Shown: positions 8,666 through 12,902 of the stretch, one piece after another | How the letters are laid out: every line of letters begins with the position of its first letter | How positions within the stretch are numbered: the stretch's first letter is position 1 | Virus record (IMG/VR): IMGVR_UViG_2541047884_000004 | From: a virus | Taxonomy: Duplodnaviria; Heunggongvirae; Uroviricota; Caudoviricetes | Length of the DNA stretch: 12,902 bases | Reading direction: 5' to 3' (one strand) | Notes under the pieces: model-generated | Told to the model about the DNA's origin: nothing | The model's input: the letters and a program-made list of their open reading frames with translations, nothing else | The model's database searches: none | Translations under genes and position numbers: made by a program

Positions 8666-8697
8666 AATGACTCCTGTGGATTGATCCAGTAATGACC

Positions 8698-8994
8698 TCA
8701 GAATTCCATCTGGATTTGTTCAGAACGCTCGGTTGCCGCCGGGCGTTTTTTATTGGTGAGTCCATCAAGCGCATACTTAAAAGCCCTGCTAATCGGACTG
8801 ATGTCTGATGCCATTCCGAAAGCACACAAGACCGAAGCAATAAATCTCCAGTCCGTTCTGCTTATCTTCGATTCATGACAGCCAATCATCTTTGCCAGAC
8901 CGCGCTGGGTAATAGCTGACAGATTGATAAGTAAATCTGTTTCTGCGCGATCAACGTCACGCTGTGATAGTTTGCTGTAACTTGTTCTTTCCAT
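8698..8994 (-). CDS. cII: CII-like transcriptional activator
   Basis: 98 aa; C-terminal LTNKKRPAATERSEQIQMEF matches lambda CII as recalled, the N-terminal two thirds are divergent. Position between cro and O. Confidence 0.8.
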   Translation of the reverse strand: MERTSYSKLSQRDVDRAETDLLINLSAITQRGLAKMIGCHESKISRTDWRFIASVLCAFGMASDISPISRAFKYALDGLTNKKRPAATERSEQIQMEF

Positions 8995-9079
8995 TTCTTA
9001 AGATTTCCAATAGTGAATAGTTAGTTGAAAGGTATGCGTGGAAACGCATATGGCCTTAGTTGGTCAGATATCTTGGAAC

Positions 9080-9124
9080 TCGCTTTTCAGCGACGTAGGA
9101 CGAATGTCCGTTGTTACAAAGAGC
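9080..9124 (-). promoter_or_regulatory. nutR-like site: boxA, spacer hairpin, boxB hairpin with GAAA loop
   Basis: Minus-strand reading GCTCTTTGTAACAA (boxA-like, 9124..9111), hairpin GGAC-attc-GTCC (9109..9098), hairpin TCGCT-GAAA-AGCGA (9093..9080). It lies just after the cro stop and has the same architecture as the site upstream of N. Confidence 0.5.
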
Positions 9125-9135
9125 GGATCCGCTTA

Positions 9136-9351
9136 TTAAGCGGCTTTGTGTTCCGGCGGGAACACGTCATCAAGACTGACTTTTGCGCCTAACTTGTTTA
9201 GGCACGCAACAAGAGCACGGCATGTTTTAAGGTCTGGGAAGCGACGACCAGATTCCCAATGTCCGATAGCTCCCTGTGTGCATCCAACTGCCTTAGCAAG
9301 TGTTGTTTGAGAGATATTCAGTGACTCTCGATATTTTCGTAGGTTGCTCAT
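9136..9351 (-). CDS. cro: Cro-like repressor (HTH, XRE family)
   Basis: 71 aa from ATG 9351 (MSNLRKYRESLNISQTTLAKAVGCTQGAIGHWESGRRFPDLKTCRALVACLNKLGAKVSLDDVFPPEHKAA), preceded by GGAGGG; divergent from cI. The longer ORF-track form would overlap the operator region and is rejected. Confidence 0.75.
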   Translation of the reverse strand: MSNLRKYRESLNISQTTLAKAVGCTQGAIGHWESGRRFPDLKTCRALVACLNKLGAKVSLDDVFPPEHKAA

Positions 9352-9462
9352 ATGCCCTCCATAGTAAACACGAATAAAAAAATACAATATGTACTTTGCG
9401 AATACAAGTAAAAATACACATTGTGCATGGATGGTTCCAGTACAGAGCGTAATAATAAGGAC
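9352..9462. promoter_or_regulatory. OR region: divergent pR (for cro) and pRM (for cI) with TACA/TGTA-type operator repeats
   Basis: Candidate pR on the minus strand: TTGTAT (9407..9402), 17-bp spacer, TATTTT (9384..9379). Operator-like near-palindromes include TACAATATGTA (9383..9393) and TACAAGTA (9403..9410). The motif at 9382..9397 is shared with the pL region. Candidate pRM -10 TAATAA (9450..9455) lies 7 bp before the cI ATG. Confidence 0.55.
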
Positions 9463-10122
9463 ATGAAAATGAAATGGTATGAACTGGCTAGATCCAGAAT
9501 GAAAGAGCTCGGCATAACTCAAGAGAAGTTAGCCGAAGAGCTAGGTATGACGCAGGGTGGGATTGGACACTGGTTGCGCGGATCTCGTCATCCATCTCTT
9601 AGTGATATTGGTGTGGTGTTTAAATACCTTGGTATTGATAACATATCATTCAACCACGACGGGACATTTTCACCTGTTGGCGAATACTCATCGGCCCCAG
9701 TTAAAAAACAATATGAGTACCCTGTTTTTTCTCATGTTCAGGCTGGGATGTTCTCTCCAGAACTCAGAACCTTTACCAAAGGCGATGCGGAGAGATTGGT
9801 AAGCACAACCAAAAAAGCCAGTGACTCTGCATTCTGGCTTGAGGTTGAAGGTAACTCAATGACCGCACCAACAGGTTCCAAACCCAGCTTTCCTGACGGG
9901 ATGTTAATTCTGGTTGACCCTGAGCAAGCTGTTGAGCCCGGCGATTTCTGCATAGCCAGACTTGGTGGTGATGAATTTACCTTCAAGAAACTGATCAGGG
10001 ATAGCGGTCAGGTGTTTCTACAGCCACTAAACCCACAATACCCAATGATCCCATGCAATGAGAGTTGTTCCGTTGTGGGGAAAGTTATCGCCAGCCAATG
10101 GCCTGAAGAGACGTTTGGGTGA
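9463..10122 (+). CDS. cI: CI prophage repressor: HTH N-terminal domain plus S24 (LexA-like) autocleavage C-terminal domain
   Basis: C-terminal ~150 aa ([71 protein letters not shown]...[10 protein letters not shown]) match lambda CI as recalled, including the GNSM serine and catalytic Lys regions. N-terminal DNA-binding domain differs from lambda. Start taken at ATG 9463 (ATG 9469 also possible). Confidence 0.9.
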
Positions 10123-10161
10123 TGAAACCACTTTTATCTACAATTTACAGGGCGGTAAACA

Positions 10162-10719
10162 TTGGCAAAAATAGATGATTATCAGCCAAGCCAAGTAGAA
10201 GTTGATAAAGTACTTTATTGTAAAAAAATAGTTAACTTTTCTGGCGTTAAATGGAAACAGAAACCAAGTCGCTCTGATATGTGGCTACAAGCCCATATCA
10301 TCCCCTTGGATGAGGATTGTATACCTATACAAGGGCTAAAGTTTGAACTGAAATGGAAACCAGATCAGGATTCAGAACCTGATGACCCGATTTCTTACCC
10401 TAAAATAAATATTATTGCTTTCTATCATAACAAGAGGGTTTTCGCGGTAGATACCTATCACTTTGACAAACACACGAATAGTTACAAGGTCGATCATCCG
10501 AAGTACCAAGATATCATTTACGGTGCTCACTACCATGTATACTATGAAGAAGCTGGATACTATAGTGATAGAATAGCGTTTCCAATCGAAGATGACATAA
10601 ACCCAGATGGCCTGGTAGGGTATTGGAATTACTTCTGTAAACATCTGAACATAACTTACTCTGGGAGAATACCTTTACCGCTTGAAGATGAGTCGGGGCA
10701 AATGGGGTTTGGAATATGA
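10162..10719 (+). CDS. Hypothetical protein, 185 aa, no recognised family; first gene of a two-gene cassette at the rexAB-equivalent locus
   Basis: Long ORF in AT-rich DNA immediately downstream of cI. First in-frame start is TTG at 10162 (preceded by AGGGCGG); no in-frame ATG until codon 40. Hydrophilic, rich in aromatic and acidic residues, no obvious TM segment. Confidence 0.6.
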   Translation: MAKIDDYQPSQVEVDKVLYCKKIVNFSGVKWKQKPSRSDMWLQAHIIPLDEDCIPIQGLKFELKWKPDQDSEPDDPISYPKINIIAFYHNKRVFAVDTYHFDKHTNSYKVDHPKYQDIIYGAHYHVYYEEAGYYSDRIAFPIEDDINPDGLVGYWNYFCKHLNITYSGRIPLPLEDESGQMGFGI

Positions 10720-11468
10720 TGTGCGCAACAGTGATCTCACAACTAGGTTTCGAATGCCATCCAATAGGCAAGACCTTGAGAATTATCAGTCCATTCACTT
10801 ACTGTGATGATGGAGAGCATGTCGGTGCCTTTATCCGTGAAGTCAATGGTAGGTATTTAGTTAGTGACAGATGCGATGCCTTAATGAATATGGAGGCAAG
10901 AGGGATCTCGCTTACCAAAAAACGACTTGATGAGATACGACAATTACTGCTTAAAGAAGGCGCAGAACTCAATGCTCGAGGAGAAATCATTGCTTGGGCA
11001 ACAGAAAAGGATGTCGGTGCGATTACATCGAACATAATTAGAGCTGGTATACTCGCATCAACTTTGTCGTTAGACTGGTATCAGCCAGTTCAAGCTGAAA
11101 AGTTTGAAAGTATGGTTATTGATTATCTATATCACACAGAGCTTAGAGACGCACTTTCTCTTCGTGAAAACGTATATGGCTTGAGTGGACATCAAATTAC
11201 CGTCCCTGTAACAATAAAAACCGACATACCTAAATACGTTTTTACATCAAGCGTGAAACACGGAGGAAGCTGGAATAGTGCTTACTCATTGCTTGGGAAA
11301 CTAATTGATCTTAAAGCTTCAAGTGAGGAGTATAACAACAGATTTGTTGTTATAGACAGCGAAGCAATTGGTGATCAAATGCAACAACTCTCCTTACTCT
11401 TCCATGAATCAAGCCAAGTTCTACCATTCTCCAAAAGAGAGACTTGGGTTAAGAGACTTGCAGCATAA
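10716..11468 (+). CDS. Hypothetical protein, 250 aa, no recognised family; second gene of the cassette
   Basis: ATG 10716 overlaps the stop of the upstream gene (ATGATG...TGA, typical translational coupling). Same strand as cI, followed within 6 nt by an intrinsic terminator. No TM segments apparent. Confidence 0.65.
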   Translation: MMCATVISQLGFECHPIGKTLRIISPFTYCDDGEHVGAFIREVNGRYLVSDRCDALMNMEARGISLTKKRLDEIRQLLLKEGAELNARGEIIAWATEKDVGAITSNIIRAGILASTLSLDWYQPVQAEKFESMVIDYLYHTELRDALSLRENVYGLSGHQITVPVTIKTDIPKYVFTSSVKHGGSWNSAYSLLGKLIDLKASSEEYNNRFVVIDSEAIGDQMQQLSLLFHESSQVLPFSKRETWVKRLAA

Positions 11469-11473
11469 TACAA

Positions 11474-11499
11474 CCCGGCCTCAGCGCCGGGTTTTCTTT
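11474..11499 (+). terminator. Intrinsic terminator ending the cI-cassette transcript (tIMM-equivalent)
   Basis: cccggc / ctcag / gccggg stem-loop followed by GTTTTCTTTG. Confidence 0.6.
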
Positions 11500-11682
11500 G
11501 CCTCACGTTCGCCCACCTAAAAACACATAACCAATTATATTTATTGAAAAATAAATAGATGCAACCCACTAAACCACGCAATTCTGATCTCTCCTTACAT
11601 CGCCGAGGCAATACATCCACGCTAAAAAACAACACTATTAAATACAAAGCGTTATAAAAAACCACGCCAACTTACAACAAAT

Positions 11683-11725
11683 TGTATTGATCTTGTAAAG
11701 TACATATCGTACTATTTAACCGTCA
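11683..11725 (+). promoter_or_regulatory. pL promoter with overlapping OL operator repeats
   Basis: TTGATC (11697..11702), 17-bp spacer, TACTAT (11720..11725). Operator-like inverted repeats TACAACAAATTGTA (11683..11696), TGTAAAGTACA (11704..11714) and AGTACATATCGTACT (11709..11723). The 16-mer AAAGTACATATCGTAC (11707..11722) recurs at OR with two mismatches. Confidence 0.5.
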
Positions 11726-11761
11726 GCAGGACGCTGGAAGCCAAATGGAACAGACTGGCAG

Positions 11762-11806
11762 GCTCTTTAAACAACGTCGACTCTCGACTACGTGGCTGAA
11801 AAGCCA
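11762..11806 (+). promoter_or_regulatory. nutL-like site: boxA, spacer hairpin, boxB hairpin with GAAA loop
   Basis: GCTCTTTAAACAA (11762..11774), hairpin GTCGA-ctc-TCGAC (11776..11788), hairpin TGGCT-GAAA-AGCCA (11793..11806), about 100 nt upstream of N. Confidence 0.5.
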
Positions 11807-11904
11807 GATCACCCAACCACATAAGCTGTGGGATGCAATGCCGAAGCAACCGTCTCAGGAGGAGCTTCGAGATTGCATCGCCAAAGTTTATTCGGGAGGA
11901 ATCC

Positions 11905-12177
11905 ATGTCCAGAAAAACAGAATTTAAAGGCACCGCAGCTTCTCGCCGTAGAGCTCGTCGCGCAAATCTGCAAAGTCAGGAGGCGATCAGCTCCGACAAG
12001 CTACACAGGCCAACCCCTTCACGAGTGGTCTTGCAATGCAAGCTCAAACCAGCAATGAGAGCAGAAGTGATAACTCTGACAACGTTGACCAGAAAATATG
12101 AAGGTTCAACTTGTCTTCCGAACGTAGCTCTTTACGCGGCAGGCTACCGGAAATCAAAACAACTGACGGCGAGATGA
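11905..12177 (+). CDS. N: N-family transcription antiterminator (P22 gp24-like)
   Basis: 90 aa from ATG 11905 with GGGAGGA RBS. N-terminal arginine-rich motif (GTAASRRRARRANLQ); C-terminal LPNVALYAAGYRKSKQLTAR closely resembles the P22 gene 24 protein C-terminus as recalled. First gene after pL/nutL. Confidence 0.75.
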   Translation: MSRKTEFKGTAASRRRARRANLQSQEAISSDKLHRPTPSRVVLQCKLKPAMRAEVITLTTLTRKYEGSTCLPNVALYAAGYRKSKQLTAR

Positions 12178-12193
12178 TAAATTCATTTGCTAA

Positions 12194-12775
12194 TTACTTG
12201 TTTTTGCCATGCTTATCCTGAGCGATAAGTTCATCCATAAGGCTGTCTGCCTTCCCGGCAAACCTAATGTAGCACTCATGTCTATAGCTTTCAGGGATAA
12301 CGAAACGGTCGGTATCAGGATATCCAACAGCAGGAGGCCTTCGAACGAGGAGTCCTTTTTTGAGCAATGAAATTGATTCATGAGCGCCCTTTTCCGTTTG
12401 TAGCTGGTTATTAGCGGCTACAGCGAATGCCAAATACGCTCTTTCTCCAAGAGTTAACGAATCAAACAAATCTTGCACATATTTTTCTTCTTTAGATTTG
12501 CGCTTCTGAGCAGCGAATACCTCAATTCTTTCAGTCACAGCGTGATAAGCGGAATTAACAACGCCGTTAAGCACATAGCTAACGCAAAACAACAGGATGT
12601 AATACATCCAGTAATGAGGAAGGATTTCTGGATTATGCAGGTTTATCCATTCTTTTACGCTTACCGGCATAACAATAATCAATATGATCAGGATGATTAG
12701 CATATGAATCAACTGTTTAAGTGTCATTCCTTGCAGGAAAAAATGCATTAGTTCCTGCCACCATGAGTTGTTCAT
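12194..12775 (-). CDS. sieB: Superinfection exclusion protein B
   Basis: 193 aa from ATG 12775 (MNNSWWQELMHFFLQGMTLKQLIHMLIILIILIIVMPVSVKEW...), hydrophobic N-terminal TM region; near-identical to lambda SieB as recalled. Convergent with N. Confidence 0.85.
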   Translation of the reverse strand: MNNSWWQELMHFFLQGMTLKQLIHMLIILIILIIVMPVSVKEWINLHNPEILPHYWMYYILLFCVSYVLNGVVNSAYHAVTERIEVFAAQKRKSKEEKYVQDLFDSLTLGERAYLAFAVAANNQLQTEKGAHESISLLKKGLLVRRPPAVGYPDTDRFVIPESYRHECYIRFAGKADSLMDELIAQDKHGKNK

Positions 12776-12809
12776 CGGCGTTTCTCTTTTGCTCTCTGTA
12801 GGGGTGAAT

Positions 12810-12902
12810 TGAACCGCCCCGGGTTTCCTGGAGAGTGTTTTATCTGTGAACTCAGGCTGCCAGATCATCGTTTCCGATGGAAGCATAATAAGCTTTTTCT
12901 GC
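12810..12902 (-). mobile_element. End of a second IS3-family (IS629/IS1203-like) copy, inverted relative to the first; continues beyond the window
   Basis: 12810..12902 is the reverse complement of 8019..8111, the right end of the complete copy including its terminal inverted repeat and the 3' end of OrfB. Confidence 0.88.

Follow-up and report, generated by a model that had tools for sequence, protein, structure and literature searches.

The DNA analyzed here, IMG/VR virus record IMGVR_UViG_2541047884_000004 (12,902 nucleotides [nt], referred to at its full length as the window), carries a lambdoid early region inverted in orientation relative to the usual lambda map, and it raises two questions, namely, which sequences at the right (OR) and left (OL) operator regions are recognized by the CI repressor and whether the cI mRNA made from the promoter pRM is leaderless. 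We found three dyad-symmetric sites of about 17 bp between the divergent cI and cro genes and a second set upstream of N; the sites overlap core elements of the promoters pR, pL, and pRM, the exception being OR2, and the repressor is predicted to combine a helix-turn-helix N-terminal domain with a LexA-like C-terminal domain of the self-cleaving type. The DNA-binding domain of the repressor is near-identical to that of the VT2-Sakai immunity type, and the operator sequences are the same. In our judgment, the locus is likely the OR/OL switch of a lambdoid prophage of this immunity type, a reading that includes a lambda-like leaderless cI. The initial observation of a shared operator motif was confirmed and its interpretation is supported, the switch being an ordinary and known one.

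The sequence AAAGTACATATYGTAY occurs exactly twice in the window, on the minus strand at 9382-9397 and on the plus strand at 11697-11712, when 0.01 matches were expected by chance and at least two copies were obtained in 0 of 200 shuffles. The first-pass annotation, which had described a 16-mer shared by OR and OL, was right on the motif and on its OR coordinates, and the OL copy, put there at 11707-11722, had been placed 10 bp too high. The 16-mer consists of one flanking base and the first 15 nt of a 17-bp pseudo-palindrome with a 7-3-7 layout and the consensus AARTACA-NNN-YGTAYTT. The additional TACA/TGTA repeats that had been seen to flank it do exist, and three sites are present at each locus, the twelve half-sites of which yield the consensus A-A-R-T-A-C-A. 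The six putative operators are as follows.

9380-9396: OR1, AAATACA-ATA-TGTACTT, the best consensus match; overlaps the pR spacer and -10 and holds most of the 16-mer.
9412-9428: OR2, AAATACA-CAT-TGTGCAT, centred 43 bp upstream of the cI initiation codon (ATG 9463).
9438-9454: OR3, CAGTACA-GAG-CGTAATA, centred at -17 relative to ATG 9463, with its right half extending over the pRM -10.
11640-11656: OL3, AAATACA-AAG-CGTTATA.
11673-11689: OL2, TACAACA-AAT-TGTATTG, overlapping the pL -35 by 3 bp.
11698-11714: OL1, AAGTACA-TAT-CGTACTA, overlapping the pL spacer and -10; holds most of the second 16-mer copy (11697-11712).

OR1, read on the minus strand (AAGTACATATTGTATTT), and OL1 (AAGTACATATCGTACTA) are identical at 14 of 17 positions, and these two are the most symmetric and most consensus-like of the six sites, which is why the 16-mer is common to both. 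The base that the 16-mer adds outside the 17-mer (9397 or 11697) varies freely among relatives. Centre-to-centre spacings are 32 and 26 bp for OR1-OR2-OR3 and 25 and 33 bp for OL1-OL2-OL3, an arrangement that is unlike lambda and is mirrored between OR and OL (phage ST64T has OR spacings of 34 and 26 bp), and OR2 and OL2 lie 2,261 bp apart.

All six sites correspond to "putative operator" features of GenBank AP005153, three at OR and three at OL, mapped onto the window. Operators of PST1 phages are also listed in Table S5 of Yin et al. (2015), where they are given as the same as those of Escherichia coli O157:H7 Sakai with a citation of Fattah et al. (2000); OR1 to OR3 and OL1 are identical to the entries in that table and OL2 and OL3 are each 1 nt off. 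In that table, L and R as well as the site numbers are interchanged with respect to where the sites lie in the genome. Operators are not discussed in PMC10458857. Operators of exactly this immunity type are already known from GenBank and the literature, and the operator part of the present analysis is not new. What is added here is evidence and not a new idea, namely, a conservation footprint of the six sites, together with a comparison across the family that backs the leaderless prediction.

In a leave-one-out analysis, in which a weight matrix built from five sites was used to rank the sixth among 12,881 window positions, OR1 and OL1 each ranked 1, OR3 and OL3 ranked 2, OL2 ranked 3, and OR2 ranked 5. 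The exact core TACA-N3-YGTA was found at four places in 12.9 kb, three of them within OR or OL. Two overlapping 17-mers inside sieB, AACAACAGGATGTAATA at 12588-12604 and TAATACATCCAGTAATG at 12600-12616, scored like the weaker operators with a half-site matrix; they are probably due to chance, and their coding context makes conservation uninformative. A fourth operator, with the half-site GAATACA (9400-9406) and the palindrome TGTA-N9-TACA (9390-9406), was rejected because positions 9397-9400, 9403, and 9404 vary freely in relatives and the pR -35 occupies this stretch.

The conservation footprint was derived from 80 IMG/VR loci whose repressor N-terminal domains are 97 to 100% identical, and these loci yielded 29 OR and 31 OL variants. 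In the OR intergenic region, variation was seen in 28 of 60 spacer columns and 4 of 9 centre-triad columns versus 5 of 42 half-site columns, and the corresponding OL figures were 29 of 55, 3 of 9, and 11 of 42. When both regions were combined, 16 of 84 half-site columns were variable compared with 64 of 133 other columns (Fisher p = 1.3 × 10−5). The half-site changes fell mostly at the outermost positions or were swaps to bases used by other sites (R at position 3, A/G at 7, and C/T at 11), except for a few changes in OL1 and OL2, each seen in a single variant. In OR1, variation was confined to positions 1, 7, and 17 and the central position 9, and in OR2 to the central positions 8 and 9. These data support the view that natural variation spares the half-sites, and, along with the putative operators of AP005153 and the list of Yin et al., they favor the earlier proposal that the motif marks likely repressor-binding sites.

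The promoters that the operators overlap at OR and OL were assigned as listed here.

9402-9407, minus strand (read 9407 to 9402): pR -35, TTGTAT, called from sequence; 3 of 6 matches to TTGACA.
9379-9384, minus strand (read 9384 to 9379): pR -10, TATTTT, 17 nt from the -35 and made in part by the outer half-site of OR1.
11687-11715, plus strand: pL, with -35 TTGATC at 11687-11692 (4 of 6 matches to TTGACA), 17 nt, and -10 TACTAT at 11710-11715.

The hexamers previously quoted for pR and pL are thus present with their 17-nt spacers, and at both promoters the 16-mer covers, as had been stated, most of the spacer and also the first 3 nt of the -10; calling the -35 elements good was generous in view of the match counts above. 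The -10 hexamers begin with bases of outer half-sites (TGTATTTT at pR, CGTACTAT at pL, and CGTAATAAT at pRM), and because each -10 takes its first bases from an outer half-site, the shared 16-mer extends from the spacer into that element. Among the 29 OR variants, the TTG of the pR -35 (9405-9407) was invariant and the adjoining bases varied; most relatives have TTGACC or TTGACA as the pL -35, and no variation was seen in the pL -10. ST64T shows the same arrangement of pR -10 and operator, with the hexamer TATTAT. These features suggest that the use of outer operator half-sites as -10 elements of pR, pL, and pRM may be a conserved design of this repressor family.

Most of the distant relatives keep the TACA-N3-YGTA core at -75 to -77, -43, and -16 to -19 from the repressor ATG, and they come from Salmonella, Klebsiella, Citrobacter, Proteus, Providencia, and Vibrio, with N-terminal domains that are mostly 40 to 56% identical. 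The core is retained only at -43 in coliphage mEp013, and no such core was found upstream of the repressor in the loci of Shewanella and of a gammaproteobacterial metagenome-assembled genome (MAG), which are the most distant relatives. Upstream of the repressor, the Shewanella and MAG loci contain inverted repeats such as GCCGATATGGC and retain CATAAT followed by 6 nt and the ATG. Since these loci lack the core and keep this arrangement, the promoter-to-ATG geometry outlasts operator specificity.

That geometry bears directly on the question of whether cI is leaderless, for which the following elements on the cI strand are relevant.

9463-10122, plus strand: cI, 219 amino acids, with Pfam HTH_3 (1.9e-10) in the N-terminal part and Peptidase_S24 (1.1e-28) in the C-terminal part.
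9451-9456, plus strand: predicted pRM -10, AATAAT, 5 of 6 matches to TATAAT, ending 6 nt before ATG 9463 and invariant in the 29 variants.
9457-9461, plus strand: AAGGA, Shine-Dalgarno-like, 1 nt before ATG 9463 and 7 nt before a second in-frame ATG at 9469.
8972-9004, plus strand: pRE-like element spanning the cII start codon, with TTGC-N6-TTGT at 8972-8985, 13 nt, and TAAGAT at 8999-9004.

The window reads AATAAT, AAGGAC, and ATG 9463, where lambda reads TAGATT, TAACGT, and ATG, and no other strong -10-like hexamer is present within 60 nt upstream of the ATG. A TAATAA hexamer had been reported 7 nt before ATG 9463, and it is there (9450-9455); its register was one base off, AATAAT being the better call, and the perfect TATAAT of Oslo and the Proteus group fixes the register as AATAAT. 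Operator centres lie at -75, -43, and -17 relative to the cI ATG in the window and at -66, -42, and -19 as annotated in lambda, and the position of OR2 differs by no more than 1 bp from that used by lambda cI in activating pRM. The lambda cI transcript from pRM is the established, classic leaderless mRNA (PMC10491246). The predicted pRM transcript of the window resembles it in the distance of 6 nt between the -10 and the AUG, in the apparent lack of a Shine-Dalgarno sequence usable for that AUG, and in having an operator over the -10, and differs from it in the second AUG at codon 3 with the adjacent AAGGA and in having a start that is predicted only.

We compared 11 representative immunity regions, whose N-terminal domains are mostly 40 to 60% identical to one another. 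A -10-like hexamer (at least 5 of 6 matches to TATAAT, with A2 and T6) ended 6 to 7 nt before the ATG in 10 of the 11, against a background of 1.6% of upstream positions. As a point on the other side, the relatives share ancestry, such that the binomial P value for this count overstates independence and is to be read as "conserved despite divergence" only. No Shine-Dalgarno sequence at a usable spacing was found before the first ATG in any relative compared (the sequence before the ATG is TCTGCGC in ST64T, TCATGGCT in a Klebsiella phage, and TTGTTGTT in Vibrio H20). AAGGA is nearly invariant within the immunity type and absent from most distant relatives, and, being only 1 nt from ATG 9463, it is too close to serve that codon. 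Moreover, Met1-Lys2 and Trp5 are invariant across the repressor family and the Met at codon 3 (ATG 9469) is missing in four groups, which supports ATG 9463 as the start. On these grounds, pRM transcription probably begins at 9463 ± 2, and the leaderless cI predicted here would be the expected lambda-like arrangement.

We take the pRE-like element at 8972-9004 to have the same layout as lambda pRE. It is the predicted source of a cII-dependent, pRE-type cI transcript, its leader about 450 nt long, which is expected in addition to the pRM transcript, and AAGGA could be usable only on such leadered transcripts, at ATG 9469. As a long-leader transcript is expected anyway, its detection is no valid refutation of a leaderless pRM mRNA, for which purpose it had been proposed.

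From about residue 84 onward, the repressor is near-identical to the lambda cI C-terminal domain (PDB 3bdn and 8gmu), and the remainder aligns weakly to lambda and is without the lambda N-terminal arm, residue 11 here corresponding to lambda residue 24. Helix 2 reads QEKLAEEL versus QESVADKM in lambda, and the positions of lambda E34 and D38 are occupied by E and E. In lambda cI, E34 and D38 form the positive-control patch that touches sigma-70. Residues 1 to 90 are 98.9% identical to the VT2-Sakai cI (AP000363) and 100% identical to those of AP005154, the PA phages, and many repressors of Shiga toxin (Stx) phages. The closest non-identical N-terminal domains (50 to 55%) are found in the Salmonella phages Oslo and ST64T/L (c2) and in Klebsiella phages, and more distant ones in prophages of Proteus, Providencia, Vibrio, Aliivibrio, and Shewanella and in coliphage mEp013. 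The protein is a mosaic, with a junction near 9700-9712 and an N-terminal part of the phage L/ST64T/Oslo type (50 to 55% identity); according to later papers, Fattah et al. described the mosaic nature of cI and cross-immunity between lambda and VT2-Sakai.

Could the shared 16-mer reflect mere promoter similarity, or a relic of recombination between pR and pL, instead of repressor recognition? Both copies do overlap a spacer and a -10, but the 7-3-7 motif recurs at four further places outside the pR and pL -10 regions, it is dyad-symmetric, its half-sites are conserved where centre triads and spacers drift, and its core accompanies the repressor family in different genera; we therefore consider such an origin highly improbable. 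The alternatives on the start of cI concern the codon that is used. Public records disagree on it: in VT2-Sakai (AP000363) the start is annotated 150 nt downstream, giving a truncated product of 169 amino acids, in AP005153 and ST64T the ATG of the longest open reading frame, upstream and inside the operators, is taken, and in Nil2 and Oslo (RefSeq record) the second ATG is. A start at the upstream in-frame ATG 9427, as annotated in AP005153, would make the OR3 region coding, and the frame is indeed open from 9421/9427 into cI. That codon, however, lies inside OR2 and upstream of both OR3 and the -10, the same frame contains a stop codon 8 to 9 codons before Met1 in Oslo and the Klebsiella phage, and all relatives align from MK..W. 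With its position within OR2 and its frame closed by stops in those two phages, ATG 9427 was rejected as the cI start, and we give it almost no credence.

More substantial is the proposal that cI is not leaderless and is translated from ATG 9469 by means of AAGGA, on transcripts that start upstream of 9457 (from an upstream pRM start or from pRE only). AAGGA, almost invariant within the immunity type and located 7 nt before ATG 9469, speaks for it, as do the annotations of Nil2 and the Oslo RefSeq record and the fact that Oslo has AAGG followed by ATGAAAATG. Yet four groups (ST64T, Klebsiella/Citrobacter, C. freundii, and mEp013) have a residue other than Met at codon 3, when Met1 is universal, and most relatives are without any Shine-Dalgarno sequence; the sole strong -10-like hexamer ends 6 nt before ATG 9463, from which a pRM transcript would not carry AAGGA as a usable leader, and the operator centres at -43 (OR2) and -17 (OR3) suit a start at 9463. 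We consider this proposal unlikely, and initiation at ATG 9469 on pRE transcripts can be accommodated by the leaderless pRM model. A dual-start scheme, in which a leaderless pRM mRNA is translated from AUG 9463 (MKMKW) and a long pRE mRNA from AUG 9469 with the help of AAGGA (MKW), is similarly doubtful; under this scheme, the conserved ATGAAAATG would serve as a built-in site for initiation in two modes. GG was found in the 6 to 8 nt before the first ATG in 6 of 7 groups with a codon-3 Met versus 1 of 4 without it, which is a tiny sample.

Several points weigh against the preferred reading of a VT2-Sakai-type switch with a leaderless cI. A consensus promoter scan of 8900-11900 with a threshold of 9 of 12 matches gave none of pR, pL, and pRM, and the promoter hexamers are weak (7 of 12 for pR and 8 of 12 for pL); as all three promoters fall below this threshold, their assignment rests on position and conservation. 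The operator spacings (32/26 and 25/33) depart from the 24 and 23 bp of lambda, OR2 lies clear of the pR -35, 4 bp (9408-9411) upstream of it, and no half-site is less conserved than the left half of OL2. AAGGA stands 7 nt before ATG 9469, and some GenBank records start cI at that codon. In the literature searched, neither binding or footprint data for the cognate repressor on these operators nor transcript-start or leaderless data on the cI of Sp5/Sakai or of this immunity type were found, the only electrophoretic mobility shift assay being one of lambda CI on VT2-Sakai sites, with a micromolar dissociation constant.

The sites, their conservation and geometry, and the protein domains were observed here, and lambda serves as the model for binding, activation, cooperativity, looping, and the transcription start in the scheme that follows. 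Repressor dimers would bind the 17-bp AARTACA-N3-YGTAYTT sites, and on OR1 and OL1 they would cover the spacer and -10, such that pR and pL, whose -10 elements take their start from the outer half-site YGTAYT itself, would be repressed by occlusion. A dimer on OR2 would be placed where lambda cI touches sigma-70, and with the acidic residues of helix 2 kept it could activate pRM; occupation of OR3, over the pRM -10, would bring about negative autoregulation. The lambda-type C-terminal domain would mediate pairwise cooperativity and OL-OR looping across about 2.26 kb, and Cro presumably binds the same sites. Transcription from pRM would begin at the A of ATG 9463, and the leaderless mRNA of the lysogen would span cI and two cargo genes and end at a terminator at 11472-11493.

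Thus drawn, the locus resembles lambda in the divergent cI and cro genes flanking three 17-bp pseudo-palindromes, with three more upstream of N, in the near-identical cI C-terminal domain, in the pRM -10 located 6 nt before the ATG, in the position of OR2 (-42 in lambda and -43 here), in the cargo genes and terminator after cI, and in the presence of pRE-like and cII elements. Unlike lambda, it has the half-site AARTACA instead of TATCACC, an N-terminal domain of the HTH_3 type with no N-terminal arm, and promoters that match the consensus less well; OR1 and OR2 are 32 bp apart versus 24 in lambda, and OR2 is therefore clear of the pR -35. The Salmonella L/ST64T (c2) and Oslo-type systems have the same core, the three-site layout at about -76/-43/-17, and the same distance from the -10 to the ATG, with N-terminal domains 50 to 55% identical, and differ in the bases flanking the half-sites, the spacers, and the C-terminal domains. 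VT2-Sakai (Sp5, AP000363), AP005153/AP005154, Nil2, and the PA4-type PST1 phages have the same operators, but for 1 nt each in OL2 and OL3, with cI N-terminal domains 98.9 to 100% identical. Compared with Sakai-type phages, the cargo between cI and OL differs (orf22 in Sakai and a PDC-M24-like pair here), and, in contrast to Stx phages, stx is absent from the window.

Coliphages ev017, ev207, and PhiR57_1 match the region at 99.9% identity, and outside the cargo the region shows about 96% identity, from cro to N, with Nil2, the Stx1-converting phage AP005153, Stx2 II, 2851, and the PA4-type phages, the last of which are the Sakai Stx2a prophage type (Yin et al., 2015). The whole window matches prophages of B2 strains, e.g., CFT073 and Nissle 1917, and of 5,426 complete E. 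coli genomes, 772 carry the OR segment, among them relatives of CFT073 as well as Nissle 1917 and the type strain, in which two it is 100% identical. The immunity type is widespread in E. coli and also governs the Sakai-type Stx2a and Stx1 phages of O157:H7, and the operators and the mode of repressor expression bear on Shiga toxin induction and on superinfection immunity from commensal or probiotic strains. The other genes and features of the region are listed below.

8698-8994, minus strand: cII, Pfam Phage_CII (7e-34).
9136-9351, minus strand: cro, 71 amino acids, Pfam HTH_3; also called cro in the annotations of related phage records.
10162-10719 and 10716-11468: two cargo open reading frames between cI and N.
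11472-11493: intrinsic terminator after the cargo open reading frames.
11833-12177, plus strand: N antiterminator, the first gene of the pL operon, Pfam N_peptide (1e-32).
12194-12886, minus strand: SieB homologue, from the Pfam scan.

The cargo pair (10162-11468) occupies the position of lambda rexAB, between cI and OL, and is probably cotranscribed with cI from pRM in lysogens. It matches the PADLOC candidate defence system PDC-M24, in full length for component B (5e-10) and weakly for A (1.2e-3), and in Pfam it matches DUF1828 and, weakly, DUF6978.

A gene of this region has been reported under another name. Bury et al. (2018; PMC5987069) described a "phage repressor (pr)", EcN_1294 of Nissle prophage 3, which protects K-12 about 200-fold against lambda and stx phages. 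The cloning primers of that study map to 8672-8691 and 9022-9040 of the window and the quantitative PCR primers to 8739-8757 and 8780-8797, and the cloned EcN_1294 amplicon therefore carries the cII homologue and not the cI repressor.

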